Positions 4,855-62,367 of a stretch of 64,000 nucleotides of DNA are shown here, one piece after another; the stretch's first letter is position 1, and each line of letters opens with the position of its first letter. This stretch comes from a virus. Lineage: Duplodnaviria; Heunggongvirae; Uroviricota; Caudoviricetes. The notes below the pieces were generated by a model, which made no database searches, was not told the origin of the DNA, and was given only the letters and a program-made list of their open reading frames with translations. The DNA lies in IMG/VR virus record IMGVR_UViG_3300012352_000310, positions 1-64,000 of that record; one strand, 5' to 3'. The position numbers were made by a program, and so were the translations under genes.

Positions 4855-4860
4855 ATGTCT

Positions 4861-16779: not shown

Positions 16780-16807
16780 AGTAAGCTCCTTACTGTTGTT
16801 GATGGTT

Positions 16808-32164: not shown

Positions 32165-33139
32165 TCAGTCCTTGTCGTCGGTTGGTATCAAGACGCGATC
32201 CTCTTCACGTTCAGGTACTTTCTTAACACGCTGCTTCCTTACCTTTGGTACAGGAGGTATTCTATCTTCCGGTATCTCAGGCAGTCCGAACTGATCGGTT
32301 TTCAGCGTGTCTGGAGTAGTGTCCTTCTCAGAAGTATCAATTGGTGCAATAGTGTCCTTCTCACGAGACACAGTCTGATTATAAGCAATGAACATCAGTA
32401 CTGCCAATGGATCGAACACCAACACGATGAGAATGATTACCCAACGGACGGCTGCTTCGAGCGTGTCTTGGCTGGTGGCTTCTTGACCGTAGATGAGCTG
32501 CGCGATGTACTTGATTGGTCCGACTTCGGCTTCGACTTTACGGACTTCGGCTGCGATTGGGGCTTTGTCTGTGTTGAGCTTGTTGATTTTTGCTTGGGCG
32601 GATAGTATCGCTTCTTGCGAGGCTTTTCGCTCTCCTGCTTGACTTCTACGGATGGCAATGGATCTTGAGATACCGGCATCGCCATTACTTGCTGTAGATG
32701 AGTTTGAGGTGCCTGCACTGGTTCTGGAGATGGTTTCATTAACCTGCGTATCCAGTTGAGCAATGATTTTACGATTTGCATCGATGATTTCCTTTTCTGT
32801 TTTGAGTTGCTCTTCTATGAGAGCTAGTTGTGATAGCGCCGTACCAGATACGAGATTCTGGTCACTGTGCGCCTTTGAGAGATATCCGAAGATACCCATG
32901 CTCGTGAGCAGCATCAGCACGAGTATAGCCGTAACGAAGTAGCTACGTACGAGAACTGGAGTCTGCTTCCAGTTACGATAGAGCCAGCTGGTCACGACGA
33001 GCTTCGAGATACCTAGTGCTACGCCCATCACTGTGATCGAGATAGGTGCAGCCGCGAAGATAGCTACGAGACCCATGATCGAGTAGTACTCGGCGACGCC
33101 TGAGAGCGTGATTGCGGAGAGCAGTAAGAGATGTGTCAT
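32165..33139 (-). CDS. multi-TM membrane protein with coiled-coil and Ser-rich region
   Basis: 324 aa; 3 N-terminal TM helices, central coiled coil, further TM, basic C-terminus. Confidence 0.55.
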   Translation of the reverse strand: MTHLLLLSAITLSGVAEYYSIMGLVAIFAAAPISITVMGVALGISKLVVTSWLYRNWKQTPVLVRSYFVTAILVLMLLTSMGIFGYLSKAHSDQNLVSGTALSQLALIEEQLKTEKEIIDANRKIIAQLDTQVNETISRTSAGTSNSSTASNGDAGISRSIAIRRSQAGERKASQEAILSAQAKINKLNTDKAPIAAEVRKVEAEVGPIKYIAQLIYGQEATSQDTLEAAVRWVIILIVLVFDPLAVLMFIAYNQTVSREKDTIAPIDTSEKDTTPDTLKTDQFGLPEIPEDRIPPVPKVRKQRVKKVPEREEDRVLIPTDDKD

Positions 33140-33181: not shown

Positions 33182-33619
33182 TTAGTCTTTAAGTTCTTCT
33201 ATATGATACTGGTCAAATACTAGATCAAAGTTTGGTACTGGTATGCTTGTATCTGTATGATTAGATGCTAGTGTGATATGTGGTTTATACTCTGGATAGT
33301 CGTAGCTTGCTCCAAGTGCTCTTGTTTCCTTATGGAATTGTTGTAGAGTATCGGATTCAAGTTTAAGTACGAATGCATTTGAGTCAAAAGATTCGTATCC
33401 AGTCGCTTTTGCTGTAATGGGTAGCTTTGGTTGATGGGATTCTACGTTTGGACATGGAGTTTTTGAGTATACAACCGTACAGTGAAGATCTTCTTTACTG
33501 GTTGGCTGATCAATATACTGGGATATGAACTCGTGAAGCTGATCTTGTGATTCTTTGGATAGCTTTAGGGATGCATACGTACCATATTGGTGATCTACGT
33601 ATTCTTTAAATGTAATCAT
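33182..33619 (-). CDS. hypothetical protein
   Basis: 145-aa minus ORF. Confidence 0.5.
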   Translation of the reverse strand: MITFKEYVDHQYGTYASLKLSKESQDQLHEFISQYIDQPTSKEDLHCTVVYSKTPCPNVESHQPKLPITAKATGYESFDSNAFVLKLESDTLQQFHKETRALGASYDYPEYKPHITLASNHTDTSIPVPNFDLVFDQYHIEELKD

Positions 33620-34056
33620 AACTTACCTTTGATGTGATTTCCATGCACGCGAATGGATATGTTGCCATTGTACCAGTCGTCGGATTCAAGTACTCTATGG
33701 CTGAATTGTTCTCTTGCTTCAATATACGAGCACAGTGCCTTGGAGTTGCAGAGGAATAGTATCTCGCGCTTGAAGTTTTCTTTACCAAGGAGCTCGATGT
33801 CCTTGTTTAGATGTTCACTGGAGCCATAATATTCTTTCCAGTCGGAGTCGATCTTGAATCGAACCTTCTTTTTCTTTTTGGTACCGTTCTTGAGTGTAAC
33901 GGTCTGCTGCTTGGTACGTGAGAACTTAGCTAGCTTCTTACCAATATACTTACGACCTGTGAGCAGATTGCTTATCAGATACACGAAGCCGACGGTATCA
34001 TCAGGCAACTCATCGATCGGTTCATTATTATACAGCCACATAAAGAAAAAGTCCAT
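33616..34056 (-). CDS. GIY-YIG homing endonuclease (Seg-like)
   Basis: 146 aa; GFVYLISNLLTGRKYIGKK = GIY-(10)-YIG motif, downstream catalytic Arg/Glu. Confidence 0.75.
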   Translation of the reverse strand: MDFFFMWLYNNEPIDELPDDTVGFVYLISNLLTGRKYIGKKLAKFSRTKQQTVTLKNGTKKKKKVRFKIDSDWKEYYGSSEHLNKDIELLGKENFKREILFLCNSKALCSYIEAREQFSHRVLESDDWYNGNISIRVHGNHIKGKL

Positions 34057-34335: not shown

Positions 34336-34641
34336 TTAATTTATCATTTCATCTGGTAAAACTGGCTCATAAGTAGCGTGAAAAATGTCTGGCTTGCAAG
34401 CATAGAATTCTCCCTGCACGCCTTTAATAATGTAGTCACCTTCGGTTGCGATATGCTTGACGGTTAAATTGATTCCATCTTCAAGTGTACCGATCTCAGC
34501 CTCACCAATTGCAGTTAGATGTCTCTCTTTATAAGTGTTTCCAAGTGCTGAACCACAGAATTCTTTTAGTCTCTTGATTCCATTTTCAGAATATTCAAAC
34601 TTAATTGCTTCAATCACTACAGGCTTCTTACGAAATTTCAT
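34336..34641 (-). CDS. hypothetical protein (CGSALG-motif paralog 1)
   Basis: 101 aa; EFCGSALGNTYKERH. Confidence 0.5.
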   Translation of the reverse strand: MKFRKKPVVIEAIKFEYSENGIKRLKEFCGSALGNTYKERHLTAIGEAEIGTLEDGINLTVKHIATEGDYIIKGVQGEFYACKPDIFHATYEPVLPDEMIN

Positions 34642-34658
34642 AATATTCTCCGGTTCTA

Positions 34659-34988
34659 TTACTCGATGGGTGTATAGTTAGCTGTAAATTCAGCTTCAGA
34701 TACAGTATACAGCTCGCCTTCGGCTGATTTTACTGCATAGTCGTTCTCCAATAGGATACGAACTGTGTTAAATATGTTCTCATCGATACGTTCTCCAAGG
34801 TCTGCCTCACCTCGGCCATAAGGATGACGGTGCTTGGTTACGGTACCAAGCGCTGAGCCACAGAGTGCTTCAAGCTCTGCGATGCCTTCAGTCGTAAATT
34901 TGAATTGTACTGCGTCGACTATCTGATTATTGAATGAATATTTCATTTCTCTACCAATCCGTGTTATCTGGCATCCAAAGATCTCCAT
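34659..34988 (-). CDS. hypothetical protein (CGSALG-motif paralog 2)
   Basis: 109 aa; ALCGSALGTVTKHRH. Confidence 0.5.
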   Translation of the reverse strand: MEIFGCQITRIGREMKYSFNNQIVDAVQFKFTTEGIAELEALCGSALGTVTKHRHPYGRGEADLGERIDENIFNTVRILLENDYAVKSAEGELYTVSEAEFTANYTPIE

Positions 34989-35235: not shown

Positions 35236-35469
35236 TATTCCACCATCTGAAGAAGACGCTTAAGCAACTCAAACTGAATGAGCAGTTGATTTATTCTTCT
35301 CTCACGAGGTATTTTATTCCTCGGAGTCCTCATCATATTCCTCGTCTTCGTAGATATCGCCTCCACAGAAGGGGCAATACGCTATATCAGACGATTGAAG
35401 ATCTCCTTCTTTGAAACTAATCTTGCCATGAGCTCCACACTCATCACAGTCGAAATGTTTAACTGCCAT

Positions 35470-36129
35470 TTATTGTTCCTCTTGTTTGTGCCATACTTTT
35501 CCTGATGCTAAAACTATCTGGCAGATATGCTCTAAACGCTCGATGTGTTCAAAAGCTCTCCAAGGAGAAGTGTCGATTGATACTACACCGTGACCTTTAA
35601 TGCCGACAATATCGTAACTGATATTTCCTTCAGAATCCAAGCCTAGATTTTCATGACATCTGTCTGCCAGTTCTTGACTAATTGGAGGGACATCTGGTAC
35701 GTTTTTAGCGACTTTAGTATATCTGCCAAGTTCTGGGAATTCTTTTACTAATTCGCTTAACTCGATTCCAGCATGCATCGCTGCTACACAATATGTAGGG
35801 TGAAAATGCATTACCACTCGCACATCCTCTGCGTGCTGACCCATACTCTTTTGTAGACCAAAATGTAGAGGCAATTCGCCACTTGGCCTTAAATTTGCGC
35901 TGATATCAGTGTAAGGTAACTCAATTGGAATAGGCGTGACATGATTGCCTCTACTAATTCCAATCTTCTTAAACTGATCTGGTTGCATGGTCTGTTTACG
36001 AACACCAGACGGTGTCACGTAGAAGTGATCTCGATCATGATGTCTGATAGAAACGTTACCATCACGACTGGTAATCCAGTTGCGACGATAAGCTTCTACC
36101 ATAGTTTCGCAGATTGTTTCTAACATCAC
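35470..36129 (-). CDS. class II aldolase/adducin-family protein (fuculose-P aldolase / ribulose-5-P 4-epimerase fold)
   Basis: 219 aa; NVSIR and zinc-ligand HFHPTY motifs. Confidence 0.7.
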   Translation of the reverse strand: MMLETICETMVEAYRRNWITSRDGNVSIRHHDRDHFYVTPSGVRKQTMQPDQFKKIGISRGNHVTPIPIELPYTDISANLRPSGELPLHFGLQKSMGQHAEDVRVVMHFHPTYCVAAMHAGIELSELVKEFPELGRYTKVAKNVPDVPPISQELADRCHENLGLDSEGNISYDIVGIKGHGVVSIDTSPWRAFEHIERLEHICQIVLASGKVWHKQEEQ

Positions 36130-37274
36130 GTATTCCTTAAGATATCTATCATCACTTTTGCAAGCTGCTTAAACCATGCTTCGTCATGACCACGAGTTGT
36201 TTCTGCTGCAACACCAATACGTACTCCACTAGTTTCTGCAAAGCTACGAGTCTCTCCAGGTACACCATTCTTATTCACAGTAATACCATGCTCTTCTAGA
36301 ACATCAGCATACTCGCGGCCGCTCATCTTTTCATTGGTGAGATCGATCGTAAACATATGACATGCAGTACCACCACTCACGATTTTGACACCCGATTGAA
36401 TAAATGCTTCAGCCATTGCATTAGCGTTTGCTCTCACTCTATATGCGTATTCAGTGAATTCAGGCTGTAGAGCTTCATAAAAACATTGAGCTTTACCAGC
36501 AATGATATGCATCAATGGACCACCTTGAGTTCCGGGAAACACAGCTGAATTCAGACGTCTTGTGTAATCTGGGTTATTCCACAAGATCAATCCACCACGA
36601 GGACCACGCAAACCTTTATGAGTTGTAGTAGTTACAACGTCTGCATAAGGGAATGGGCTTGGATACTGACCACCTGCAATAAGACCAGAATAATGAGCAA
36701 CGTCTGCTAGGAGTAGAGCGTCAACTGAGTCAGCAATTTCACGGAATCTAGCCCAATCAATTACTTGGCTATAAGCACTAGCTCCAGCGATGACCATCTT
36801 TGGTTTTACAAACTGAACTAATTCTTGAACAGCATCATAATCAATAAAGCCATTCTTATCTACACCATAACTATGAGCGACGAACCATGAGCCACTGATA
36901 TTCACTTGAGCTCCATGACTCAAATGACCGCCACTAGCTAGATCCATACTTACTACAGTATCATTTGGCTTTAAGAAAGCTTTGAATACTGCTAGGTTAG
37001 CGTTAGCGCCTGAATGTGGCTGAACGTTTGCATACTCACAACCAAACAACTTAGTAGCATATTCGATTGCAATATTTTCAATCTCATCTACGTTAGAGCA
37101 TCCGTTGTAATATCTTTTTCCAGGTAAGCCTTCAGCATACTTGTTAGTAAGAATACTACCACATAAGTCCATCACTGCTTGGCTTGTATAATTTTCACTA
37201 GCGATCAACTCGATAGTGCTTTTCTGTCTGATGCCTTCATTTAATAAGGCTGTGTGAATTCTTTGATCAATCAT
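36126..37274 (-). CDS. glyA: serine hydroxymethyltransferase
   Basis: 382 aa; ELIASENYTS signature, PLP-lysine region TTTTHKGLRGPRGG. Confidence 0.9.
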   Translation of the reverse strand: MIDQRIHTALLNEGIRQKSTIELIASENYTSQAVMDLCGSILTNKYAEGLPGKRYYNGCSNVDEIENIAIEYATKLFGCEYANVQPHSGANANLAVFKAFLKPNDTVVSMDLASGGHLSHGAQVNISGSWFVAHSYGVDKNGFIDYDAVQELVQFVKPKMVIAGASAYSQVIDWARFREIADSVDALLLADVAHYSGLIAGGQYPSPFPYADVVTTTTHKGLRGPRGGLILWNNPDYTRRLNSAVFPGTQGGPLMHIIAGKAQCFYEALQPEFTEYAYRVRANANAMAEAFIQSGVKIVSGGTACHMFTIDLTNEKMSGREYADVLEEHGITVNKNGVPGETRSFAETSGVRIGVAAETTRGHDEAWFKQLAKVMIDILRNT

Positions 37275-37297
37275 TATAAAATCTCATTCTTGTAAAG

Positions 37298-37543
37298 TTA
37301 ACTGTCACGTCGTATCTTCTGCAACTGTAAATTCAGCACAAAATTCTCTAATACTAACTTAGTTATAGTCGAAAGCATGATCAGTTCTCGATCAGGTCCA
37401 TCTTGTTTATTGAACATTTCAATAACATCCAAAGCTATAAGCTTTACAGCTTCATCTTCAGATATGTTTAGCATTCCCCAGTCTATAGGGTCTTGAGTTT
37501 CTATAACTCCAACTAGCTCAATAATCTGATTTATGTCGATCAT
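37298..37543 (-). CDS. hypothetical protein
   Basis: 81-aa minus ORF. Confidence 0.45.
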   Translation of the reverse strand: MIDINQIIELVGVIETQDPIDWGMLNISEDEAVKLIALDVIEMFNKQDGPDRELIMLSTITKLVLENFVLNLQLQKIRRDS

Positions 37544-38718
37544 TCTTTCTCCAGTATATCAGCAATCATCTCAGCGGTACATGGAGATAGTGTCCAACCT
37601 AAGTGTCCATGTCCTGTGTTTAGATATACTTTCTCTCGCTTGCCTTTGCGAACGATTGGAAGCATTGAAGGAGTCATTGGTCTTAGACCAGCCCAAGGTT
37701 TATAGTCTCGAGTATCGATCTTTGGAAAGTTAGTGTGTACCCAATTCAACAGCGGATCAATGCGATCTTTGCGAATATCTAGATTCCAACCATCCAACTC
37801 TGCCGTGCCTGCAACTCTGAATCTATCTCCAAGAGTCGATGTAACGATCTTAGCTTGATCGTCAAGCATAGATGTAGTTGGAAAGTTCTCTGGATTATCT
37901 CGGATAGTAATTGAATAACCCTTCACAGGGTATACATTGATTGACTCACCAAACATTCTAGCAACACGAGCTGAATCAGATCCAGCACAGATAATGATCT
38001 TGTCGTAGCTATATTCTAGATGTTCTGAGTACGCAGAATCGATTTCAAAACTATAATTAAACACAACACCACGTTCTTCAAGCCAATCTGCTAGTTGGTT
38101 ACAGAACTTATGTATATCACCCATCGCATCTGATTCTGTCCAGATACCGCCGATGATATCTGAAGAGACTTCAAGCTTTGGTTCTAGCTTTTTAATCTCT
38201 TCTGGGGTCACAACCTTACGTTCTAAGTCAGTGTATCGGTATATGCTTTCCATTGCATATAACGCATCTGAATAATAACCTGAATCTTTATAAAAATGTA
38301 GAATACCATTCTTACTTAGATCGAATTGAATTCCGGTTTCGTCTGCAATCTGGTAGTATAACTCGCGAGCAGTCATACCCATAGCGATAGTTTCCCAAGT
38401 GTTGCTACGCTTGTTAAACTCACCTTTATATACTTGATGCATGAAACCAGCAATCCATTTGAGCTTTGCTGGTGATAGGCTTGGTCTGATTAAGAAAGGA
38501 GCATCTGGAGTAAACATCCATTTGATTCCTTTCTTAACATTAGACCAGCTGGTCCATGTTTCAGAATTAGAAACACTTAGTTGGCCGCCATTGGCATAAG
38601 ATGTTTTCATCCCAGCGTATGGCTCTTTATCAAATACTGATACTTGATGGCCTCGTTTTACTAATGAATATGCTGTAGTGATGCCAGTGATGCCAGCACC
38701 TATCACCGCGACTCTCAT
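37540..38718 (-). CDS. FAD-dependent oxidoreductase (DAO family: glycine/D-amino-acid oxidase or MnmC-like)
   Basis: 392 aa; N-terminal Rossmann MRVAVIGAGITGITTAYSL..VFDKE. Confidence 0.7.
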   Translation of the reverse strand: MRVAVIGAGITGITTAYSLVKRGHQVSVFDKEPYAGMKTSYANGGQLSVSNSETWTSWSNVKKGIKWMFTPDAPFLIRPSLSPAKLKWIAGFMHQVYKGEFNKRSNTWETIAMGMTARELYYQIADETGIQFDLSKNGILHFYKDSGYYSDALYAMESIYRYTDLERKVVTPEEIKKLEPKLEVSSDIIGGIWTESDAMGDIHKFCNQLADWLEERGVVFNYSFEIDSAYSEHLEYSYDKIIICAGSDSARVARMFGESINVYPVKGYSITIRDNPENFPTTSMLDDQAKIVTSTLGDRFRVAGTAELDGWNLDIRKDRIDPLLNWVHTNFPKIDTRDYKPWAGLRPMTPSMLPIVRKGKREKVYLNTGHGHLGWTLSPCTAEMIADILEKE

Positions 38719-39707
38719 GCAGCTTTACCCCATACGTCGTTCCATGAACCAGCAGTGGCACCTTTGGCATAGTCTGTAACTCTATTCTCGAAAAAGTTTC
38801 CGTGGATAGGAGCGTTAATCATAGATTCTACCCACGGCAGAGGATTGCGCTTGACTTTGAAGATGCCCTTCATGCCAAGCCCGATCAATCGACGATCAGC
38901 AATGTAACGAATGTACTGTTTTACTTCTTCTTTGGTAAGACCTTGCATCTCGTTGATACCGAACGACAAATCGATGAACTTGTCTTCCAATTCAACCATT
39001 TTCTCAGCGATACTGTAGATGCTTCCTTTAAGTTCGTCGTTCCAGATCTCTGGATTTTCTTTGATGTATGTCTTAAACAAACGCATCATGTTTTCAGCGT
39101 GCTGTGTTTCATCGACGATAGACCAAGTAACGATCTGACCCATGCCTTTCATCTTGCCGTGGCGAGGGAAGTTTAACAGCATAATGAATGAACTGAACAG
39201 TTGCATACCTTCAGTAAAGGCAGAGAATACGGCGATGTGACGAGCTGTATTTTCTTTAGTAGAGTTCTGGTTTGCAATGCCTAAAACATATTCGTGCTTG
39301 TCCTTCATCTCTTGGTATTCCAAGAACTGATTGTACGTAGTCTCTGGCAGACCAAGAGTTTCAATCAGGTGAGAATACGCAGCGATGTGCAATGCTTCAC
39401 GTGCGGCGAAACCAAGCAACATCATACGAATTTCAGGTTGAGGGAAGTATGGCAGATAGTTGTTAACGTAGCCACCAGCAACGTCGATGTCGCCTTGAGT
39501 AAAGAATCTAAAGATGTTAGTCAGGAATTCTTTCTCTTGTGCTGTAAGAGTACGCTTCCATTGCTTTTCATCTTCAAGCATAGGAACTTCGGTATGCAAC
39601 CAATGAGACTGTTCGTGTTTAAGCCACGCATCATATGCCCAAGGATAGTTGAAAGGCTTGAACGACGTGCGTTCATCAGTCATTTTTTGTTCTAGTTTTT
39701 TAATCAT
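38715..39707 (-). CDS. nrdB: ribonucleotide reductase class Ia small subunit
   Basis: 330 aa; ferritin-like di-iron ExxH motifs, radical Tyr region. Confidence 0.85.
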   Translation of the reverse strand: MIKKLEQKMTDERTSFKPFNYPWAYDAWLKHEQSHWLHTEVPMLEDEKQWKRTLTAQEKEFLTNIFRFFTQGDIDVAGGYVNNYLPYFPQPEIRMMLLGFAAREALHIAAYSHLIETLGLPETTYNQFLEYQEMKDKHEYVLGIANQNSTKENTARHIAVFSAFTEGMQLFSSFIMLLNFPRHGKMKGMGQIVTWSIVDETQHAENMMRLFKTYIKENPEIWNDELKGSIYSIAEKMVELEDKFIDLSFGINEMQGLTKEEVKQYIRYIADRRLIGLGMKGIFKVKRNPLPWVESMINAPIHGNFFENRVTDYAKGATAGSWNDVWGKAA

Positions 39708-39904
39708 TTGTCTTCTTCCAATATTAGTTCGATAAAGCCGTCGAAGACTCTCACTCCGACGACATCTTTAAATCCTTCTGCTGGATCATACACGCATACT
39801 CTAATTTTAGCTTTTGATTTTGGTAGTTCTCCACTGTTTTTAGGATAGAGATCTGCCCAATATTTTTTAATCTTTTCAGCAATATCGTATGCGTCCATGA
39901 TCAA
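39704..39904 (-). CDS. hypothetical protein between nrdA and nrdB
   Basis: 66-aa ORF with 4-nt overlaps on both sides. Confidence 0.45.
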   Translation of the reverse strand: MIMDAYDIAEKIKKYWADLYPKNSGELPKSKAKIRVCVYDPAEGFKDVVGVRVFDGFIELILEEDK

Positions 39905-41712
39905 CCTTCACAAGCTAGGCACGCGCCATCATCTGTAGTAAGTGCATTCAAATCGATTTCTTTAATAACTTCACGTTCGATACGCTTAGAAACTTTATCA
40001 GCTTTAGCGATCTTATCTGAACGGCAGTAATACATAGTCTTCAACTTTAACTTCCAAGCCATAAAGTGCACAGCATGGATATACTTAATGTGACTGTCTG
40101 GTCGGAAGAATACATTCAATGATTGAGCTTGATCGATGTACTCTTGACGATCAGCTGCATGTTGAACAACCCAGCGCTGATCAATTTCCATTGAAGTCTT
40201 GAACACATCACGTTGCCAATCATCAAGGAATTCCAAGTGTTGTGCCGAACCATCATTAGCGATAACTGAAGACCAAGTGTCTTCATACCAACCTTCTTTA
40301 TGATTAACAGCTTCAGCTCTGATCAGTGCATCAAGAAATTTATTCTTGTTTAAGTGAGAACCCGATAGAGTGTCTTGGCGATAAGCATTGGCGCGATAAG
40401 GTTCAATGCTAGGGCTAGTATTGCCCATGAGAATGGAAGAAGAAGCATTGGGAGCAATAGCCATGAGATGACTAAAGCGATTGCCAGTGCCTTTAGCATC
40501 TGGTGCTTCACCACGTTCATATCCCAATTCCTTATTAGCGACATCTAGTTTACCTCGAATGTTCTTGAAGATTGATTTATTAAGACCAACAGCCATTGAA
40601 GATTCCCAAGGGATGTTCTTCTTTTGTAGCAGAGCATGGAAGCCAAGGGCACCAATGCCAATTGATCGTTCACGTATTGCGCTGAACTTTGCGCGTTCAA
40701 TGCTGTCTGGGGCATTGTCAATAAAGTATTGAAGAACGTTATCCAACATTTCAGCTACGTCGCGTAAGAACTGTGGATGATCTTTCCATTCATCATAATA
40801 CTCTAGATTCAAAGAACTCAAGCAGCAGACAGCAGTGCGTTGTTCGTTAGTTGGTAGAATGATTTCAGAGCACAGATTAGATTGATGAACCTTCAATCCT
40901 TGGTCTTTTAACCACTGAGGAAGCTTACGATTGGATTCATCGATAAAGTGAATGTATGGCTCGCCTGTTTGCATACGCAGATCAAGAATCTTTTGCCATA
41001 GTTCACGAGCAGATACTACTTCACGAACTTCACCACTGTGCGGATCTTTTAGTTCCCAGCTGTCGTCAGCATGAGCATCGAGCATTGATCGCTCGATGAT
41101 TTCCATAAAGCTATCTGGAATATTGATACCATGATGCAGGTTGAGAGTACGCATATTTTGATCGCCTGTTGGCTTACGCATCTCAAGGAAAATTAGAATA
41201 TCAGGATGACTAATGTCAAGATAAGCAGCATAGCTACCGCGGCGAGTACGGCCTTGGCGGTAAGCAAGAGAAGATGCATCATACATCTTAAGATGTGGCA
41301 TAACGCCGGTAGACTTATCATCAGCAGCACGAATACCAAAACCAATTCCAACACCGCCTCCTAACATTGATAGCCAATTAGTCTCACTTAGGTTCTGCAC
41401 TAGACCTTCTGCAGTATCTTCAATGTAATTGAGGAAACATGAAATAGGCAGACCACGCTTACTGCGGCCAAAAGAAAGAATGGGAGTGCTATAAGAGAGC
41501 CAATGAGTTGAACTGTACTCATATAATCGTTGCGCATGTGCTGGGTTACTCCCGAATTTTGACGACACGAAAGCGAATCGCTCTTGAGGACTAACCTCGT
41601 CATCTTTCATGTAACTTTCTTTTAATCGAATCTTACCCAGTTCGTCGAACAACTCGTCTCTGGCAAGGTTCACTTGGATTCCGTGAACTACATCAGTCAT
41701 ATTATACTCCAT
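39901..41712 (-). CDS. nrdA: ribonucleotide reductase class I large subunit (short form, no ATP cone)
   Basis: 603 aa; active-site NLCSEI, C-terminal Cys pair CLACEG. Confidence 0.85.
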   Translation of the reverse strand: MEYNMTDVVHGIQVNLARDELFDELGKIRLKESYMKDDEVSPQERFAFVSSKFGSNPAHAQRLYEYSSTHWLSYSTPILSFGRSKRGLPISCFLNYIEDTAEGLVQNLSETNWLSMLGGGVGIGFGIRAADDKSTGVMPHLKMYDASSLAYRQGRTRRGSYAAYLDISHPDILIFLEMRKPTGDQNMRTLNLHHGINIPDSFMEIIERSMLDAHADDSWELKDPHSGEVREVVSARELWQKILDLRMQTGEPYIHFIDESNRKLPQWLKDQGLKVHQSNLCSEIILPTNEQRTAVCCLSSLNLEYYDEWKDHPQFLRDVAEMLDNVLQYFIDNAPDSIERAKFSAIRERSIGIGALGFHALLQKKNIPWESSMAVGLNKSIFKNIRGKLDVANKELGYERGEAPDAKGTGNRFSHLMAIAPNASSSILMGNTSPSIEPYRANAYRQDTLSGSHLNKNKFLDALIRAEAVNHKEGWYEDTWSSVIANDGSAQHLEFLDDWQRDVFKTSMEIDQRWVVQHAADRQEYIDQAQSLNVFFRPDSHIKYIHAVHFMAWKLKLKTMYYCRSDKIAKADKVSKRIEREVIKEIDLNALTTDDGACLACEG

Positions 41713-42589
41713 TTGTTTTGTAAATTTCTCGCTCCCACAATTTACGATACTGGATCCAACCTTTCAAGTTACCATGCAACGATTCATCTTGCCAGCTGGA
41801 CATCTGTCCCCTTGGAGCTGCGACAAGAATGTCTGGTGTTGCTTGGTGTTCAAGTGGACTCGCATGTAGTGGTACAGCGCCCGCTAGTCTCTGGAACAGG
41901 AACAAGTCTTCATCTTTGTTCGCTTTCGTTCCGTCGTGTTTTAAGTAACTTACACGACAGCATCGTGCAGCACTAATTTTTGCCAACATATTACTATTCG
42001 CGTTGGCTTCGATCTTGTAGAATGGATCTTCCAATTCCTCGTCTGTTATATATGGCAGATGCCATTGGCCCGGTTCGAGCAATCGAGGAGTAGAAGCATT
42101 TCTAGCTTCGATCATACGTAAAGCTAATTCATGTATTTCTGGTTGAGCGTCTTCATGTGCACGAAGCTCATCCCAGTTATCAAATTCAGTTGCCGTAACG
42201 ACACCATGAGCCCAAAGATACGGCTCAATAGTTCTGTTTACGATTTGTTTGTGTGTACCAAGCAGTGACATTGACTCAGCATAGAATGCAGCATGAATAG
42301 CTGCTTGACGCCATTGCTCTTTTACACCGCTTCGTGTCAGTGCATCAAGCTCTTCTTTGGCTTGCATACCTGCTTGATTCTTTCCCCAATGAACAGGCAA
42401 AGCAGGATCTGTGCGAACCTGCTCTAGTAATTTTGCTGTGGGGATTGCTCGACTTGAGCTGAAATTCCGAGAGAACACTCGGTGTGTATTGAATTCCGGT
42501 AGAATGAATCTATGGAACTTCACCTGCATCGTGGTGATGCGTTTGCCTGCCGCAGAAATGCTATCGGCAATAATTTTTGCTTCTATCAT
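41702..42589 (-). CDS. thyX: flavin-dependent thymidylate synthase
   Basis: 295 aa; THRVFSRNFSSSR matches ThyX RHRx7SxR motif; AHEDAQPEIHE resembles H-AQWE motif; occupies T4 td position next to nrdA. Confidence 0.7.
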   Translation of the reverse strand: MIEAKIIADSISAAGKRITTMQVKFHRFILPEFNTHRVFSRNFSSSRAIPTAKLLEQVRTDPALPVHWGKNQAGMQAKEELDALTRSGVKEQWRQAAIHAAFYAESMSLLGTHKQIVNRTIEPYLWAHGVVTATEFDNWDELRAHEDAQPEIHELALRMIEARNASTPRLLEPGQWHLPYITDEELEDPFYKIEANANSNMLAKISAARCCRVSYLKHDGTKANKDEDLFLFQRLAGAVPLHASPLEHQATPDILVAAPRGQMSSWQDESLHGNLKGWIQYRKLWEREIYKTNGV

Positions 42590-48353: not shown

Positions 48354-51077
48354 TTATTTTGTATAGCTCTTGTGTGCTAGACGATCGTTTTCAATCTTAC
48401 GCACTCTTGGAGCCATCTTCATAGCTAATCTATTTATGACAGCTTTACGACGCTGAATGATTCGTTCAATACGTTCTTTTTCTGCAACAGATAGTTTGTC
48501 TAATGGTTTCTTAGCTATGCGCTGCTTCATAGATTGAATAGCTAAGCGACGGGCGCGTTTATTTATGGTAGCTGTGCTGGAACGTGATTTCAATGCGATC
48601 TTAATCTTACGTTCACGCTTAGATTGAGTACGAGCAAATCTAACTTTAGCTCTCATACGTTCCATACGAGATAGAACTTCGTTCAATACTTCTTCAGCTA
48701 TATCTTCGATGTGTTCGCCTGTCTCGTCATCAACAAGAGCTAGTTCATCATCTTCATAAGCATCTAGAATATCGTCTTCATCTTCTAGATCACTAACGAT
48801 CTTATCCATCTCGTCGTCAGTTAGATCTAATTCGTCGCCAAGATCTTCTACTTCTTCTGAAGTCTTAGTTAATCCAAGTGTTAGATCGTCTTCGTCATCA
48901 GGAATATCTTCTTCAGTTCCTTCTTTTAGACGTTCTTTTTCTGACTGTTGCTTTGTTGCTAATGATGCTTTTTCTTGAGCATGCTTAACTTGAAGTTGAG
49001 CTGCTTCATGTTTTTTCTTAGCTGCTTCAACAGGATCGGCTTCTTCAGTTCTATATGCAACCTTCATTCTACGAAGGTGATGGTTATCTTCTGGAGATAC
49101 CATTGCATGACCAACTTGGTTTGGTTCTTGAACGATAGTGTCACTATCAGATTCATCGTCTTTTACGCTACGAACTTTAGACAACTGCTTCTGCAATACA
49201 GAAGTATCTTTACCAAGTGTTTTAGCTGTAGCGATTTCTTCTAGAATCTTAGAGATTTCTTCTTTAACATGCTTCTTAAGGTCGTTAGCAAACTGCTTAT
49301 TAGTTGCTTTCATAATACCAGAAAAACGCTTGTTGCCTTTCTTGAAGTCACCGGCTTTGTCTGCAGCAGATGCATCATCAGAAGCAGCTTTCTTGTAACG
49401 ACTTAACAGATCGGTAGAAAGTTCGTTAACAACTTCTTCATGAGCTAGTTTTCTCATTCCAGGATCAATGCTGCCATTATTATCGTAGCGATGCTGTACA
49501 CCTTTTTTACCAGATTTTTGTAAATCTTTCATAGCCTTGTCGGCGTCTGCATAGTTTTTGTGGGTGCTTGTCTTAATCCAATCGCCACGTGAATTACGAT
49601 AACCTACGTGAATGGTTTCTTCAGATACTTTCTGTGGTACTAACTTATCATCGTACTTAATTTCTGCTTCTTTAGCAGTCTGTAGCATCTTATGAAGCAC
49701 TTCAACATACTCAGGACGCATAGGTTTGCTGCGTACTTTACGTAGAGCATTGTTGATTAGTTGTTCTGGATTGGAAGACTTTTCTACGTCTTCAAGGCCT
49801 AGTGCCGAAGCAATGACACGCGCGACTTTGATCTTATCTGTAGCGTTGAATTTCATTTCTATTAGTTGTCCTTCTAGTTCTACTGAATCTGCAAATTCCG
49901 CGCCCTGAGTCTCAGGAGTGAAATTGTTCTCCATGTCTTGGATTTCGTGTTCATGAGTATGCCAATAGTCAAAGTGGTGCATGAACTCTCCAATACGATT
50001 TAGAGAATCTCTAGCCTTATCATGTGCGTCATGCCATGCCGCCAATTCGGCAGCTTCAGGTACCTTGTCCTGTTGCAAATGCGAATCGTTGATTTTCATG
50101 TAAGTGTCGGTCGACTTAAGTGCGTTTAGGATCGCGACAGCGTCCTTAATTTGTCCAGCGTTATAACGTTGGATTGTAGTTTGAAAGGCTTTAGTGGCAT
50201 CAGCTGAATGATGAAGATTCTTTGTCTTGTAACCCTTAAACGATATTTCTTCTGGCGCTTGACCAGTTGGGATGTCTTCCGCGATGAACGTCGGCTGAAC
50301 TGAATCTAACCACTTTTTACTGATGTCGCCAGATTCATTGACTACAGTTACGTAGTTAGCACCTCTATCGACAACCTCATACACTGACTCACCATCGGTG
50401 ACTTTGTCACCAACATTAAAAATCTCTCCTGCATGATACTTCTCACGAAGTTCGTTGCGCTCAAACTTAACTTGCTCTTTGATAACATCCATTCCCAAGC
50501 CTTGACGAATTTCATTCATCAAGCGCTTACCATCGATGTCTGTTAGGGTATGTGGAAGACCCTTCTTGAATAACTGATAGTCACCCTTCTTTGCGGCTTC
50601 ACGCATCTTAGTGCCAGACATACCGGCTGCGTTGTCAGCATCTGGATCGCGTTCACCAGCAGAAACAACTTCAATAGTTTCGAAGTTGAATGCATCAGTG
50701 CCGTTATACTTCTCTAAAATTCTCTTATACTCAGGAACACGATCGGAACCAGCGAGCATGACAAGATGCTTGTACTTCTTTGACAAAGCACCAGCAGCTT
50801 CAATGAATGTTCTGATTTGTTCGTTTGCCGCGACGAAGTTCGTCTTCGGAAACATTTTCTTAAGATAGTAGACTTTACGATCTACTTGGAGAGGATTAGA
50901 CTTTTTGTCTTGAGTGCGCGAAGCAAAGATGATATGGTCGGCTTTTTGTTTGCCGGCAATCTTTTTGACTGCGTTGACCAATAGCTCGTGACCATTTGTA
51001 GGCGGTTGGAATCTACCAAACGCCATGACGACCTTCTTAGAAGGCAGTTCTTGTACTAACTGTCTGTATGCTTTCAT
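48354..51077 (-). CDS. large late protein: N-terminal NMNAT/cytidylyltransferase-like domain fused to ~730-aa charged coiled-coil region
   Basis: 907 aa; MAFGRFQPPTNGH (HxGH-type) and MSGTKMREA (ISST-like) motifs in first 170 aa; late promoter 30 nt upstream. Confidence 0.7.
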   Translation of the reverse strand: MKAYRQLVQELPSKKVVMAFGRFQPPTNGHELLVNAVKKIAGKQKADHIIFASRTQDKKSNPLQVDRKVYYLKKMFPKTNFVAANEQIRTFIEAAGALSKKYKHLVMLAGSDRVPEYKRILEKYNGTDAFNFETIEVVSAGERDPDADNAAGMSGTKMREAAKKGDYQLFKKGLPHTLTDIDGKRLMNEIRQGLGMDVIKEQVKFERNELREKYHAGEIFNVGDKVTDGESVYEVVDRGANYVTVVNESGDISKKWLDSVQPTFIAEDIPTGQAPEEISFKGYKTKNLHHSADATKAFQTTIQRYNAGQIKDAVAILNALKSTDTYMKINDSHLQQDKVPEAAELAAWHDAHDKARDSLNRIGEFMHHFDYWHTHEHEIQDMENNFTPETQGAEFADSVELEGQLIEMKFNATDKIKVARVIASALGLEDVEKSSNPEQLINNALRKVRSKPMRPEYVEVLHKMLQTAKEAEIKYDDKLVPQKVSEETIHVGYRNSRGDWIKTSTHKNYADADKAMKDLQKSGKKGVQHRYDNNGSIDPGMRKLAHEEVVNELSTDLLSRYKKAASDDASAADKAGDFKKGNKRFSGIMKATNKQFANDLKKHVKEEISKILEEIATAKTLGKDTSVLQKQLSKVRSVKDDESDSDTIVQEPNQVGHAMVSPEDNHHLRRMKVAYRTEEADPVEAAKKKHEAAQLQVKHAQEKASLATKQQSEKERLKEGTEEDIPDDEDDLTLGLTKTSEEVEDLGDELDLTDDEMDKIVSDLEDEDDILDAYEDDELALVDDETGEHIEDIAEEVLNEVLSRMERMRAKVRFARTQSKRERKIKIALKSRSSTATINKRARRLAIQSMKQRIAKKPLDKLSVAEKERIERIIQRRKAVINRLAMKMAPRVRKIENDRLAHKSYTK

Positions 51078-55150: not shown

Positions 55151-55176
55151 TTTGTTTTCCTATTCTAACGATAGTT

Positions 55177-59561: not shown

Positions 59562-60333
59562 ATGCTTTCTTATGCTGAATCACCGTTCCATATTTAGTCA
59601 ACCCTTTCCAAGGGCCGCTTGGTACTTTCTTCTCAGTTAGCTTGATAAAGTTAGGCCACAGATCAGCCAACTTCTTTTGAGCTTCGTTATGCACTTCAAT
59701 AGTGCGCCAAGTAGAACATCCACCAGCAGCGTTAGTCTCAGAACAGGTTACCATGTATTTAGCGCTGATACGATTCTTAAATCCACGAGTCAGCAATTGT
59801 AGATTCACATCAAAGTCTTCTGCTGCAGCAACACGATTCCATTCGATGTCCGTTGGAATACGAGGGCCATCATAGAAAACGTTTGTCATGATACGTTGGC
59901 ATTCACGTACTGGCCATTGCTTAACATCTGGAATAACCCAAGCAGGCAGCAATCCACCGTAAGCAATACCTTCGTCCATCCAAGTATCGCACAGACCAAA
60001 TGCATCGTCAAAGTCTTGATCACTGAACTTTCGGCTCAACCACTTAGTGCCTTCACCGGGATTCGGTTCTTTTACTACGAAGTCAAGATCATCGTCAAAC
60101 ACAAAATGCCTAGAATCGCGAAACCGATTGAAGATCCATTCTCGAGTAGGCGCAATGCGATTGATTTCTGCAGGAAGTCGTAGTACTTTTCCTGGATAGC
60201 GTTTTTCCATTTCGTCATATTCATGCTCCTGTACGACAAAGGTTGTAATATTCTTGTACTTTTCTGGCAAGTTACCATACGTGACTTGTTTGTCCATACG
60301 TCCAAGAGTCGGGATTACGATGTGTTGAATCAT
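59512..60333 (-). CDS. GT-A-like glycosyltransferase candidate
   Basis: 273 aa; N-terminal VIPTLGR (GT2-like) and FDDDLDF DxD motif. Confidence 0.45.
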   Translation of the reverse strand: MIQHIVIPTLGRMDKQVTYGNLPEKYKNITTFVVQEHEYDEMEKRYPGKVLRLPAEINRIAPTREWIFNRFRDSRHFVFDDDLDFVVKEPNPGEGTKWLSRKFSDQDFDDAFGLCDTWMDEGIAYGGLLPAWVIPDVKQWPVRECQRIMTNVFYDGPRIPTDIEWNRVAAAEDFDVNLQLLTRGFKNRISAKYMVTCSETNAAGGCSTWRTIEVHNEAQKKLADLWPNFIKLTEKKVPSGPWKGLTKYGTVIQHKKAYESSQKPTDTLESFFV

Positions 60334-60883: not shown

Positions 60884-61221
60884 ATTCTTTTCACATATAC
60901 TACTAAACCAAGCTTAGTAGCGGTTTCAATCATGTTCTTTGTTCCGCGGGACTTACCGTCCCATATTGCAATCAGTGCATCAGCGTTTTCAGCCATTTTT
61001 CTATTTCTTAATGGACCTGCAGCTCTGCCATGACGTTCCCAATCAGCTTCATAGATATGTAGTGTCAGATTCATGTTCATGGCGTACTGCTCACCTAAAG
61101 CATCTACACCTTTAGCTCCACCTGATACAACAGTAGTGATGTTTAGATTAGCTTCTTCGATAGCATCTAACACTAATTGGTAGTCGTGGATCTCTCTTCC
61201 ACCAGCGATAATAGTCTTCAT
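60880..61221 (-). CDS. SLOG/DprA-like Rossmann-fold protein (DUF2493-like)
   Basis: 113 aa; IIAGGRE...SGGAKGVD...GPLRNRKM pattern. Confidence 0.5.
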   Translation of the reverse strand: MKTIIAGGREIHDYQLVLDAIEEANLNITTVVSGGAKGVDALGEQYAMNMNLTLHIYEADWERHGRAAGPLRNRKMAENADALIAIWDGKSRGTKNMIETATKLGLVVYVKRI

Positions 61222-61670
61222 GGCGTAACGTAATCGTAAGTGACACTAGCTTCTTCAAACAAAGAACGAGTGCGTTCCCAGGATTCAACCCAGATCGGAG
61301 GAATAACGTCATCGACCAAAAACACTACGTGTCTAATACCAACTTGAATAATACCCTTTGCGCACTCACTACATACTGGAAGTCCATATACAAACATAGT
61401 TGAATCTGCAAGCGAGGTACCATTTAAGCAAGCGTTGAAGATAGCATTCATCTCGGCATGTACTACATACTTGTACTTAGTTTCGCGATCGCTCAATCTA
61501 TCTTGGTTATCTGCGATTCCTCGTGGAAAGCCATTGAATCCTTGGGCAAGGATTTGTCCTTTAGACCCAACAGCGACAGCACCAATCTTTCTACTTGGAT
61601 CTTTACTCCAAGTAGAAATATGTTTTGCCAGCTGCAGGTAGTTGTTACGCCACTTGATGGATTCTGTCAT
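61218..61670 (-). CDS. cd: dCMP deaminase
   Basis: HAEMNAI zinc motif and PCSECAKGI; start trimmed to internal ATG. Confidence 0.75.
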   Translation of the reverse strand: MTESIKWRNNYLQLAKHISTWSKDPSRKIGAVAVGSKGQILAQGFNGFPRGIADNQDRLSDRETKYKYVVHAEMNAIFNACLNGTSLADSTMFVYGLPVCSECAKGIIQVGIRHVVFLVDDVIPPIWVESWERTRSLFEEASVTYDYVTP

Positions 61671-62367
61671 ATTCTTCCTTAGTAATATGAACTTCACCGG
61701 TTGCAATGTAATGGTCAACGAGATAGAACTGTCGATCATAGATATGTAGAGATCCAACGTTCCAATGAATATCACCAATCTCTACGTTAAGATCGATTGC
61801 AAGAGCTGCTAACACATGGTATTGCCAAGCATAATCGTTGCGGTAACCAGCCCAAGCATCATTAGAACGCATTTGTACGATTGCATTCAATTTACCTTTT
61901 CTCAAGATGTATTGAACTGCATTAGTACACATGAAGTCAGATCGACCATTTTCGTTATAATCTGTCCACATGTTTGGACGAGTATAGATCATTGTTGCGC
62001 GACGAGAATCTGGATTCTTTTGTAGTTCTGCTAGAACGTTCTTGTACTGCGATCCATTAGCGCTGTTGTATACACACCAACCGTAGTTAGAATTGATTCG
62101 ACCATTCTTGCAAGCAACTTGTTGCCAGATCTTTGGTGCACCACCGGGAATGTCGTTCACATAAAGAGATTGAGACATATACCAGTCAAGTTCGCGTTGA
62201 ACATAATCTTCGTTCACTGCACCAAAGATCATTTCCTCGTCGGCAAGAAATGATGCCCCAACGATCTCAATGACTCTACCACCGAACTTATCAGTTACGA
62301 ATTCGCCATCATCATATAGTGCTGCAAACTGATTGCGAATATCTTCTACTGAGTTAATAAAAATCAT
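61645..62367 (-). CDS. deoxycytidylate (pyrimidine dNMP) hydroxymethylase, ThyA family (T4 gene 42-like)
   Basis: 240 aa; NPDSRRATMIYTRP and DFMCTNAVQY...MRSNDAWAGYRNDYAWQ; catalytic Cys, Asp in RNDY; lacks ThyA N-terminal domain. Confidence 0.7.
   Translation of the reverse strand: MIFINSVEDIRNQFAALYDDGEFVTDKFGGRVIEIVGASFLADEEMIFGAVNEDYVQRELDWYMSQSLYVNDIPGGAPKIWQQVACKNGRINSNYGWCVYNSANGSQYKNVLAELQKNPDSRRATMIYTRPNMWTDYNENGRSDFMCTNAVQYILRKGKLNAIVQMRSNDAWAGYRNDYAWQYHVLAALAIDLNVEIGDIHWNVGSLHIYDRQFYLVDHYIATGEVHITKEEYDRIHQVA

Follow-up and report, generated by a model that had tools for sequence, protein, structure and literature searches.

The window analysed here is a 64-kb stretch of a 114-kb contig from an uncultured freshwater phage. 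Between positions 42589 and 35470 lies a block of eight minus-strand genes, in the order listed below, which ends with a class II aldolase-fold gene (ALD) abutted by one further small ORF.

41702..42589, minus strand: ThyX-like flavin-dependent thymidylate synthase, first gene of the operon (phrog_85, 2.8e-80)
39901..41712, minus strand: NrdA, class I ribonucleotide reductase (RNR) large subunit, short form of 603 aa (NF006577, 734 bits against a cut-off of 620; PF02867, 4.8e-103)
39704..39904, minus strand: 66-aa ORF between nrdA and nrdB
38715..39707, minus strand: NrdB, class I RNR small subunit (NF007186, 433 bits against a cut-off of 237; PF00268, 2.7e-75)
37540..38718, minus strand: DadA/glycine-oxidase-like FAD amine oxidoreductase, here DAO (PF01266, 1.7e-61)
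37298..37543, minus strand: 81-aa ORF between DAO and SHMT
36126..37274, minus strand: serine hydroxymethyltransferase (SHMT), short (~382 aa) form (PF00464, 2.7e-144; NF000586, 553 bits against a cut-off of 335)
35470..36129, minus strand: class II aldolase/adducin-fold metalloenzyme, last enzyme gene of the operon (PF00596, 1.9e-29)
35314..35469, minus strand: 51-aa zinc-ribbon-like ORF

The six genes named at this locus in a preliminary description are all intact minus-strand ORFs, with exactly the coordinates given there. Neighbouring genes in the block share 4-11 nt at every junction but one, a 23-nt gap before the SHMT gene, and the SHMT stop codon interlocks with the aldolase start codon (TGATG). 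All genes of the block resemble the remainder of the window in GC and GC3, and within it neither promoter-like nor terminator-like sites are enriched. The block is a real nucleotide-precursor operon, in which an intact SHMT forms one translationally coupled unit with the ThyX-like enzyme and NrdAB.

The 81-aa and 66-aa ORFs were missing from the preliminary gene list. Searches of Pfam, NCBIfam and PHROG returned no match for either. The former has homologues (36-48% identity) near the aldolase in about ten viral loci, and the latter keeps its position in loci L001/L049, L029 and L035; neighbourhood counts such as these derive from simple ORF calling and BLAST clustering, and many of the loci are related to one another. 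The 51-aa ORF is a syntenic neighbour retained in 12 related loci at 46-76% identity, and its matches to zinc-ribbon Pfam models are weak, every one below cut-off.

The thymidylate synthase falls short of the cut-offs of both the Pfam ThyX model (20.4 vs 24.8 bits) and the TIGRFAM ThyX model (35.4 vs 87.9 bits). Its signature reads THRvfSrnfSsSR against the canonical RHRsfSfqefSqR, with Thr replacing the first Arg of RHR. In 1035 phage records, genes bearing a ThyX or thymidylate synthase annotation are about 50% identical to it, and judged by its sequence it is a divergent type common to N4-like and many other phages. A canonical ThyX (Thy1, 1.9e-45) occupies exactly the same slot in syntenic relatives. 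The proposal that ThyX stands here where T4 has td, upstream of nrdA, is therefore supported. NrdA is 74-86% identical across syntenic viral loci, and no ATP-cone domain was detected in its 603 residues. Two further enzymes of the same metabolism are encoded elsewhere in the window:

61645..62367, minus strand: dCMP hydroxymethylase, T4 gp42 orthologue, 19 kb from the operon (match to the T4 enzyme 1B49, E 1.2e-89)
61218..61778, minus strand: dCMP deaminase, dUMP supply for ThyX (PF00383, 7.7e-19, residues 42-154)

The true start of the deaminase is probably internal, because the listed TTG start overlaps the gp42 orthologue. The latter, described beforehand as a ThyA-family hydroxymethylase, does belong to the ThyA superfamily and is specifically of the gp42 type: it retains the catalytic Cys (DFMCTN) and the cytosine-specifying Asp (RNDYAW), which 6a9a/6l18 carry mutated to Asn. 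The phage DNA thus probably contains hydroxymethylcytosine (hmC), and the gp42 orthologue and the ThyX-like enzyme are the two predicted phage consumers of 5,10-methylene-tetrahydrofolate (THF). Elsewhere in the 64-kb window of the 114-kb contig, neither a DHFR nor a canonical ThyA or ThyX was found; the rest of the contig may carry DHFR or further folate genes.

The arrangement resembles that of T4, which has the gene order frd-td-nrdA-nrdB, plus gene 42: a thymidylate synthase gene directly precedes nrdA-nrdB, and both a gp42 orthologue and a dCMP deaminase are encoded. It differs in that the synthase is ThyX-like rather than ThyA and in that DHFR was not found in the window. The phage also adds its own SHMT, DadA-like flavoenzyme and aldolase-fold gene, none of which is known from T4.

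The SHMT aligns end to end with Salmonella and E. coli GlyA (3gbx/1dfo). Its PLP lysine is present in TTTTHKGLRGPRGG, and the motifs SENY, RYY, PHSG, D..H, TTTTHK, GGP and SG[VI]RIG all align with GlyA, so that all catalytic residues are kept. A recent host gene fragment that had lost the PLP lysine is not what we found; the protein falls within a large clade of SHMTs (~382 aa) from metagenomic, largely viral, contigs and therefore does not represent a host fragment. In the 120 best-matching database clusters, identity to it is 80-87% and length 381-390 aa, and hundreds of ~382-aa clusters fall in that same identity range. Phage-encoded SHMT had been called rare, which is accurate for cultured phages (50 of 50,697 records) but not for uncultured viruses, in which we counted at least 147 IMG/VR loci. 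The sole coherent isolate-genome group among the 50 records consists of 21 Aeromonas phage records. In these T4-like phages (Biquartavirus, e.g. Asfd_1 Asfd1_66 / PHG31p8) the SHMT is about 50% identical to that of the window over a match of ~380 aa; however, it is annotated as hypothetical and adjoins the topoisomerase II large subunit and small early genes, not RNR, ThyX, DAO or an aldolase.

On other viral contigs, with gene labels checked by Pfam, SHMT has ThyA plus DHFR, ThyX, NrdA/B or glutaredoxin as neighbours. The contexts include DHFR-ThyA-SHMT (L137, L159, L160, L165), ThyX-x-SHMT (L155, L161, L163) and NrdA/NrdB (L119-L124), and lineages that lack the aldolase likewise place SHMT next to thymidylate synthases. 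The IMG/VR modules DHFR-ThyA-(DAO)-SHMT and ThyX-SHMT (L010/11/13, L137, L159-165, L155-163) resemble the window operon in setting SHMT, and sometimes DAO, within a thymidylate-cycle gene set, but they use ThyA and DHFR or a canonical ThyX, contain no aldolase, and encode SHMTs 61-67% identical to that of the window.

The DAO carries the GxGxxG dinucleotide motif (VIGAGITG), and its AF2 model (pLDDT 92) is a DAO-family flavoenzyme fold; the FAD-binding residues, whose lack had been considered as a possible objection, are thus present in a confidently modelled enzyme. A GLRP motif occurs at what is presumably the position of the substrate-carboxylate-binding Arg in glycine oxidase and DadA enzymes. 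Among PDB structures the fold is closest to glycine oxidases and oxidases of N-substituted glycines, the best Foldseek matches being the glycine oxidases 4ysh and 7cyx (E 1e-24); this match does not discriminate between the candidate activities, because no DadA structure is among the PDB matches. As a candidate identity, ThiO was rejected (129.5 bits against a cut-off of 250.8), leaving the enzyme as DadA/glycine-oxidase-like. It shares fold and FAD motif with ThiO and bacterial DadA, but has neither a thiamine nor a D-alanine catabolic context.

The DAO recurs beside SHMT. In all 11 loci that contain both, the two lie within three ORFs of each other, in seven arrangements and in both gene orders, with SHMT 61-82% and DAO 46-63% identical to the window copies. 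They are directly adjacent in L002 (NrdA-DAO-SHMT-NrdB), L010/11/13 (DHFR-ThyA-DAO-SHMT), L110, L122 and L168/172, and two to three ORFs apart in L005/L009 and the window. The suggested serine/glycine link between SHMT and the FAD enzyme fits this recurrence. In 18 of 29 DAO loci no SHMT occurs within 10 kb, and these DAO-only loci still adjoin ThyA/DHFR, ThyX or NrdB.

The enzyme might instead be a true D-amino-acid dehydrogenase, unrelated to the glycine made by SHMT, that passes electrons from D-Ala, D-Pro or a similar substrate to the quinone pool; during infection it would thus be a source of energy, keto acids and ammonium. Its top family match is DadA PRK12409 (NF009074; 479.7 bits over the full length), followed by PRK00711 (313 bits). 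Cellular homologues, some of them in freshwater Burkholderiales, are 54-58% identical, stand alone in uninformative contexts, and are annotated as D-amino-acid dehydrogenases. Given these annotations and a score just under the DadA cut-off, D-amino acids are as plausible a substrate as glycine. That same score does, however, fall below the equivalogue cut-off (494), and such an activity leaves the repeated placement by SHMT, ThyA, DHFR and NrdB unexplained; we consider this explanation unlikely as a whole.

An action on nucleic acid, either MnmC-like on the 30 phage tRNAs or as a flavin lyase trimming an amino acid on a modified base, is highly improbable. The window does contain a 30-gene tRNA array and a base-modification cluster at 58-63 kb, and flavin-dependent lyases are known from thymidine hypermodification (PMC8989533). 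But MnmC models match only residues 2-49, the N-terminal Rossmann segment (57 bits against a cut-off of 174), whereas DadA PRK12409 matches over the full length, and no MnmC structure is found within the top 50 fold matches. The DAO also has no PHROG family match, 19 kb separate its gene from the modification cluster, and the phage encodes a dCMP, not a dUMP, hydroxymethylase. The MnmC alternative offered in the preliminary description was accordingly abandoned.

The aldolase-fold protein scores below the cut-off of every NCBIfam equivalogue (MtnB comes out best, with 51 bits against 137), and the PSGE, HFH and GHG motifs are invariant in the alignment. The gene occurs in more than 599 IMG/VR viral loci at about 80% identity; no homologue was found among cultured phages. 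A class II aldolase/adducin gene was reported from Lake Baikal T4-like viruses of methylotrophs, its role being left open (Coutinho et al. 2020, PMC7678222); the likeness to the window gene is by description, the paper containing no analysis of distribution, conservation or context. Most aldolase loci have neither SHMT nor DAO, the usual neighbours being peroxiredoxin/AhpD or NrdA/B. Bacterial orthologues in freshwater Burkholderiales are surrounded by redox genes, and neither SHMT nor DAO occurs close by. The earlier assignment of the aldolase to an amino-acid shunt is not supported by these observations: only its position ties it to a Ser/Gly shunt, and it is an independent, very conserved core gene of the phage lineage, probably linked to redox stress.

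A closer partnership would centre on an aldehyde, one that SHMT either releases or joins to glycine and that the aldolase provides or conditions. It would have a precedent in 4-fluorothreonine transaldolase (FTase), a fusion protein that combines an SHMT-like domain with a class II aldolase-like domain that binds Zn (PMC7162832). The two genes lie within two ORFs of each other in 15 of 15 loci that have both (about eight arrangements, both orders), and their stop and start codons overlap in the window. Yet SHMT is missing from most aldolase loci and from the bacterial ones, and the aldolase is found in none of 62 more distant viral SHMT loci. The phage genes, moreover, are separate, the SHMT is of the regular GlyA type, TIGR04506 matches the SHMT part only (112 bits against 650), and the aldolase has no match to the FTase model. 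We regard such a partnership as improbable.

Alternatively, SHMT, DAO and the aldolase could be independent captures of host genes at a permissive site beside nrdB, coupled through general nucleotide or stress metabolism at most. This site does vary among syntenic relatives, with the orders nrdB-ALD-zn51 (L029, L030, L035), nrdA-ALD-nrdB (L037, L070), nrdB-x-ALD-DAO (L001), ALD-dCMP deaminase (L053) and NrdB-x-ALD-h81 (L088), and both the aldolase and the DAO have close homologues in freshwater Burkholderiales, which are probably the hosts. Against mere accumulation stand the translational coupling of the genes, the adjacency of SHMT and DAO in unrelated backbones, in both orders and even inside a DHFR-ThyA module, and the placement of SHMT beside thymidylate synthases in aldolase-free lineages. 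Independent capture is a possible explanation, although a rather doubtful one.

With moderate confidence, we favour the reading that the operon is the DNA-precursor and one-carbon supply of a phage with a folate-cycling SHMT, a glycine-oxidising DAO and an independent aldolase. NrdAB would reduce ribonucleotides and dCMP deaminase would yield dUMP, while the ThyX-like enzyme would make dTMP and the gp42 orthologue 5-hm-dCMP, each using 5,10-methylene-THF. Because these two would release THF and not DHF, DHFR would not be needed, and SHMT alone could close the folate cycle, recharging THF at the expense of serine, the direction of flux that we infer. Since every base pair would hold one T or one hmC, each would cost one methylene unit and, if the methylene comes from SHMT, would generate one glycine. 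The DAO would most likely convert this glycine to glyoxylate and ammonium, and so draw forward the SHMT reaction, which is reversible. The need for such a sink is not obvious, since glycine is of use in purine synthesis as well. The aldolase-fold gene would be co-transcribed, whatever part it may play. Most likely, the operon sustains the supply of folate one-carbon units for DNA that costs one methylene group per base pair.

The window is phage DNA, with nearly all genes on the minus strand; it contains a 30-gene tRNA array, cyanomyovirus-related virion proteins, a DNA ligase, and NAD-salvage genes. Analysis of ORFs and profiles returned exactly the coordinates that the preliminary description had given, and shows a block of eight consecutive ORFs, listed here in order of transcription.

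Genes of the block
41702-42589, minus strand, ThyX-like protein (profile searches)
39901-41712, minus strand, NrdA (profile searches)
39704-39904, minus strand, 66-residue ORF (block member)
38715-39707, minus strand, NrdB (profile searches)
37540-38718, minus strand, DAO-family flavoenzyme (profile searches)
37298-37543, minus strand, 81-residue ORF (block member)
36126-37274, minus strand, serine hydroxymethyltransferase, SHMT (profile searches)
35470-36129, minus strand, class II aldolase-fold protein (profile searches)

The junctions are overlaps of 4-11 nt throughout, with the sole exception of a 23-nt gap preceding SHMT; the SHMT stop and the aldolase start share TGATG. A scan of the block found no enrichment of promoter-like or terminator-like sites within it, and its base composition and GC3 equal those of the remainder of the window. 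The overlaps, the lack of internal site enrichment, and the matching composition together indicate that the genes are long resident and form one translationally coupled unit. The block is genuinely an operon for DNA precursors. Megablast of the 7.1-kb region against 50,697 phage records gave no match.

Other features of the window are recorded here. The tRNA genes, thirty in 5 kb (57-5025, minus strand), include duplicates for Asp, Glu, Phe, Tyr, Met, Val, and Ile. The NAD+ salvage pair (15382-17814) consists of a nicotinamide phosphoribosyltransferase of 465 residues and a NadR-like adenylyltransferase/Nudix protein of 324. Just downstream of the block, two adjoining small ORFs (101 and 109 residues, 34336-34988) fall in one cluster and are therefore probably paralogues. 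Beyond them lie genes for a 146-residue protein (33616-34056), with matches to phrog_447 (annotated NAD synthetase) and weaker ones to homing-endonuclease PHROGs, and for a 324-residue membrane/coiled-coil protein (32165-33139); more than 20 related loci conserve these last two genes in synteny with the block. Large proteins are encoded at 48354-51077 and 53777-56406. One, of 907 residues, has an N-terminus matching phrog_3041 and phrog_395 (annotated cytidyltransferase), while two large proteins neighbouring it have phrog_3041/phrog_455 segments in common, and a virion structural protein adjoins.

The ribonucleotide reductase (RNR) and ThyX portions of the block are ordinary. Both NrdA (734 bits, cut-off 620) and NrdB (433 bits, cut-off 237) pass the class I RNR equivalogue cut-offs. 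The ThyX-like protein scores below cut-off for PF02511 (20.4 bits against 24.8) and TIGR02170 (35.4 against 87.9), and carries THR..S....S.R where the canonical motif is RHR..S....S.R. Its family is phrog_85 (2.8e-80), and 1035 phage records contain genes, annotated as ThyX or thymidylate synthase, to which it is about 50% identical. Alignment by hhalign to canonical viral ThyX is weak (E 0.038) and covers only the motif region. A canonical ThyX (Thy1, 1.9e-45) fills the same slot upstream of nrdA in syntenic contigs (L001, L037, L083, and others), which argues that the ThyX-like protein is probably its functional equivalent.

The second putative consumer of methylene-THF is the orthologue of T4 gp42 at 61645-62367, which matches T4 dCMP hydroxymethylase 1B49 at E 1.2e-89. 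The catalytic Cys (in DFMCTN) and the cytosine-specifying Asp (in RNDYAW) are both conserved, precisely the positions at which the PDB mutants 6a9a and 6l18 depart from wild type. The surrounding region, 58335-62882, is a likely hmC toolkit, which includes a dCMP deaminase and the gp42 orthologue together with the following.

Further genes of the likely hmC toolkit
58335-59561, C5-cytosine-methyltransferase-like gene, near the gp42 orthologue
59512-60333, TET-associated-type glycosyltransferase, matching a PHROG annotated 'beta-glucosyl-HMC-alpha-glucosyltransferase'
60880-61221, SLOG/YspA-like protein
within 58335-62882, 172-residue 'hydrolase', close in size to T4 dCTPase gp56

Given the gp42 orthology and the adjoining dCMP deaminase, glycosyltransferase, and methyltransferase-like genes, the phage very probably makes hmC DNA. 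With hydroxymethylation of dCMP already provided for, the presence of a methyltransferase-like gene is odd.

The SHMT matches its profile over the full length and scores above the curated cut-off (481 bits to PF00464; 553 bits to NF000586, cut-off 335), with residues 4-381 aligned to positions 2-380 of the 404 in NF000586. Its motifs TTTTHKGLRGPRGG, SENYTS, KRYYNGC, QPHSGA, DVAHYSGL, QGGPLMH, and SGVRIG align with structure 3gbx, and all active-site motifs, including that of the PLP Schiff-base lysine (TTTTHK), align with GlyA of Salmonella and E. coli; we take the roles of these residues to be those established in the SHMT literature. The predicted enzyme is some 25-35 C-terminal residues shorter than the 417-residue GlyA. 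Its closest relatives are non-cellular. The best 120 database clusters, 80-87% identical and 381-390 residues long, come almost throughout from metagenomic contigs, and the one bacterium-named record comes from a Haliscomenobacter metagenome-assembled genome (MAG) that probably contains mis-binned phage contigs. Solved bacterial SHMT structures are far more distant. IMG/VR holds at least 147 SHMT loci at 61-84% identity, while among cultured phages a clear homologue occurs only in Aeromonas T4-like phages (50% identity; annotated as hypothetical in the Asfd_1 record). Phage SHMT is thus uncommon in cultured phages and recurrent in uncultured ones. Viral SHMT genes neighbour DHFR-ThyA, ThyX, NrdA/NrdB, or glutaredoxin (labels checked). 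Because of its active-site homology and these viral neighbourhoods, the earlier proposal that SHMT feeds both ThyX and the hydroxymethylase is well supported, as far as homology and gene context can predict function.

ThyX and dCMP hydroxymethylase both give back THF, not DHF, so SHMT alone would be able to close both cycles. The 64-kb window, part of a 114-kb contig, contains no DHFR, ThyA, or canonical ThyX. Every base pair includes one T or one hmC, and de novo synthesis would therefore cost one methylene-THF per base pair. In the mechanism we propose, from homology and conserved neighbourhood, serine would be converted by SHMT to methylene-THF for T and hmC synthesis, one glycine would be yielded per base pair, and the DAO-family flavoenzyme would remove this by-product. 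The glycine load comes arithmetically to the order of 0.1 M equivalents, if one assumes a cell of 0.1 µm3 and a burst of 50, each genome being at least 114 kb.

The flavoenzyme has the FAD Rossmann motif (VIGAGITG) and scores 209 bits to PF01266. To DadA (PRK12409, NF009074) it aligns over its full length, residues 2-391 to model positions 3-405 of 410, and at 479.7 bits narrowly misses the cut-off of 494; that its substrates are D-amino acids, not glycine, is a serious alternative. Its AlphaFold2 model (pLDDT 92, pTM 0.91) resembles glycine oxidases most closely by Foldseek (E 1e-24), followed by sarcosine oxidase beta subunits, CmiS2, proline dehydrogenase, and dimethylglycine oxidases. Assignment as ThiO (TIGR02352) was rejected at 129.5 bits against 250.8. 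The preliminary description had offered an MnmC-like enzyme as an alternative; this did not survive, since the match (TIGR03197/NF002480) reaches 56.8 bits against 174.2, covers residues 2-49 only, and is accompanied by no MnmC structure among the top 50 fold matches. A reading as a hypermodification lyase likewise failed, by score, by coverage, and by the neighbours of the fold.

The flavoenzyme matches no PHROG family, and searches of cultured phages gave no bona fide match. Matches in INPHARED to 'Acinetobacter phage MD-2021a' were discarded as bacterial chromosome, because fumC, argF, and ispF are carried; one such record, CAKLQH020000012.1 (L105), has galE and dadA as well and looks bacterial. 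Counts of phage SHMT and DAO matches are consequently inflated by these records. Cellular homologues (54-58% identity) are solitary and in uninformative contexts, with TctC/PrpF/LysR genes in one and flagellar genes in another. In IMG/VR, 24 loci were found with the flavoenzyme as query and a few more through other scans. By our own ORF calling and clustering, and among loci that are related and partly redundant, DAO and SHMT lie one to three ORFs apart in 11 of the 11 loci holding both, in seven arrangements and in both orders. The window's own order is the seventh; the others are as follows (L-numbers are comparison contigs; x is another ORF).

Arrangements of DAO and SHMT in other loci
NrdA-DAO-SHMT-NrdB (L002)
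DHFR-ThyA-DAO-SHMT (L010, L011, L013)
PTPS-x-SHMT-DAO (L110)
ALD-x-SHMT-DAO (L122), where ALD is the aldolase-fold gene
x-DAO-SHMT-x (L168, L172)
ALD-x-SHMT-x-x-DAO (L009, L005)

Where SHMT is lacking, ThyA/DHFR, ThyX, or NrdB still adjoins DAO. From this comparative neighbourhood we infer that the flavoenzyme serves the SHMT reaction, most simply via oxidation of glycine. Our literature searches found no paper describing viral SHMT or DadA as auxiliary genes, and no description of SHMT paired with a DadA/glycine-oxidase-like flavoenzyme in thymidylate modules.

The last gene of the block encodes a clear member of PF00596 (103 bits, gathering score 22.2). Its HFH and GHG motifs align with the metal-ligand His residues of 2irp and 1pvt, and among 33 homologues E85, H108, H110, and H180 are invariant, as are the FucA-type Glu (PSGE), HxH, GHG, and the TPSG loop; metal-ligand roles of class II aldolase residues follow PMC7162832. 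Named enzymes were rejected: all 21 matches to NCBIfam models (MtnB, FucA, RhaD, AraD, OtnC, and others) fall far under cut-off, the best being MtnB (TIGR03328, 51 bits against 137). Profile matches to the PDB are weak and partial (MtnB N-terminus 5e-5, 1pvt 0.003, AraD 0.016), and an AlphaFold model built from 33 near-identical sequences has pLDDT 37. The profile finds 694 cluster representatives at E<=0.001 among 1.84 billion proteins, which marks a narrow, separate subfamily. IMG/VR holds more than 599 loci (the best 80 at 78-87% identity) and a metagenome protein collection about 6,955 clusters, while 50,697 phage records gave one weak match only (24% identity). Freshwater viruses of Lake Baikal had earlier been noted to carry a class II aldolase/adducin gene, which was left unexplained (PMC7678222). 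Three longer members (P0384, P0405, P0417; 305-319 residues) have an N-terminal segment of about 125 residues with Cys/His motifs that, judged by eye, looks like an HNH/endonuclease VII homing nuclease; each may be a true fusion or the product of merged gene calls, and they offer no hint of function. Should the segments be homing nucleases, invasion would fit a very conserved target gene.

In the 81 loci analysed, the aldolase-fold gene most often neighbours a peroxiredoxin and an AhpD/CMD-family protein, in the order AhpC-ALD-AhpD; NrdB, NrdA, a GDSL hydrolase, and a PTPS/QueD-like gene come next. Placement between AhpC-TSA peroxiredoxin and AhpD/CMD genes is seen in L025, L026, L031, L036, L042-L046, L060-L076, and others, mostly with the aldolase-fold gene at about position 10001 of the contig. 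SHMT or DAO is adjacent in only a few loci. Isolate genomes of Limnohabitans, Polynucleobacter brandtiae, and betaproteobacterium MOLA814 carry orthologues that are 72-75% identical, which points to freshwater Burkholderiales as the likely phage hosts.

Bacterial orthologues of the aldolase-fold gene
L195, 8001-8627
L198, 8001-8639
L199, 7995-8639
L194, 6595-7221

The bacterial neighbours are a glutathione-reductase-like disulfide oxidoreductase, 1-Cys peroxiredoxin, DoxX, DUF2237, a DCC1-like thiol oxidoreductase, cytochromes, and a MerR regulator; neither SHMT nor DAO is near the gene in these three lineages. Comamonadaceae copies have lower GC (0.455) than the surrounding DNA (0.529). MAG contigs assigned to Bacteriovoracaceae, Haliscomenobacter, Schleiferiaceae, and Ignavibacteriaceae (L191, L192, L201, L202, L205) are syntenic with phage loci (ThyX-NrdA-NrdB-ALD and similar) and are probably mis-binned phage DNA.

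A functional partnership of SHMT with the aldolase-fold protein has two observations in its favour: by the same ORF calling and clustering of partly redundant loci, the genes lie no more than two ORFs apart in 15 of the 15 loci with both, in about eight arrangements, and a fusion of SHMT-like and class II aldolase-like domains is known, the fluorothreonine transaldolase (PMC7162832). Against it, the aldolase-fold gene adjoins SHMT or DAO in only a few viral loci, and its bacterial copies have no SHMT nearby; its distribution and redox neighbours lead us to rank the partnership as a minority hypothesis. Nor do the window proteins belong to the 4-fluorothreonine transaldolase family (TIGR04506), to which SHMT scores 112 bits against 650 and the aldolase-fold protein shows no match at E<=0.01. 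We treat the aldolase-fold gene as independent and as probably related to redox stress. It seems to us quite unlikely that the aldolase-fold protein acts together with SHMT and the DadA-like flavoenzyme in a viral module of three enzymes that has not been described before. In it, the aldolase-fold protein would process an aldehyde that SHMT takes up or releases, and serine or threonine would be converted quantitatively to methylene-THF for hmC and T. The pairing might then resemble, by analogy, that in fluorothreonine transaldolase, or the aldolase-fold protein might dispose of glyoxylate, formaldehyde, or acetaldehyde. Such a module, if real, would explain what a gene family of thousands of freshwater phage genomes does. 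The protein is in any case well suited to work on function discovery, and it might serve to mark the hosts of freshwater phages.

Textbook phage modules for nucleotide metabolism comprise RNR, ThyA/ThyX, DHFR, and gp42, and phages usually leave it to the host to supply the one-carbon units upstream. The block suggests that some phages also take over the regeneration of methylene-THF. Viral SHMT loci number at least 147 and viral DAO loci about 25; with these, the block points to a minimal cycle of ThyX, gp42, and SHMT that dispenses with DHFR and may include disposal of the glycine by-product.
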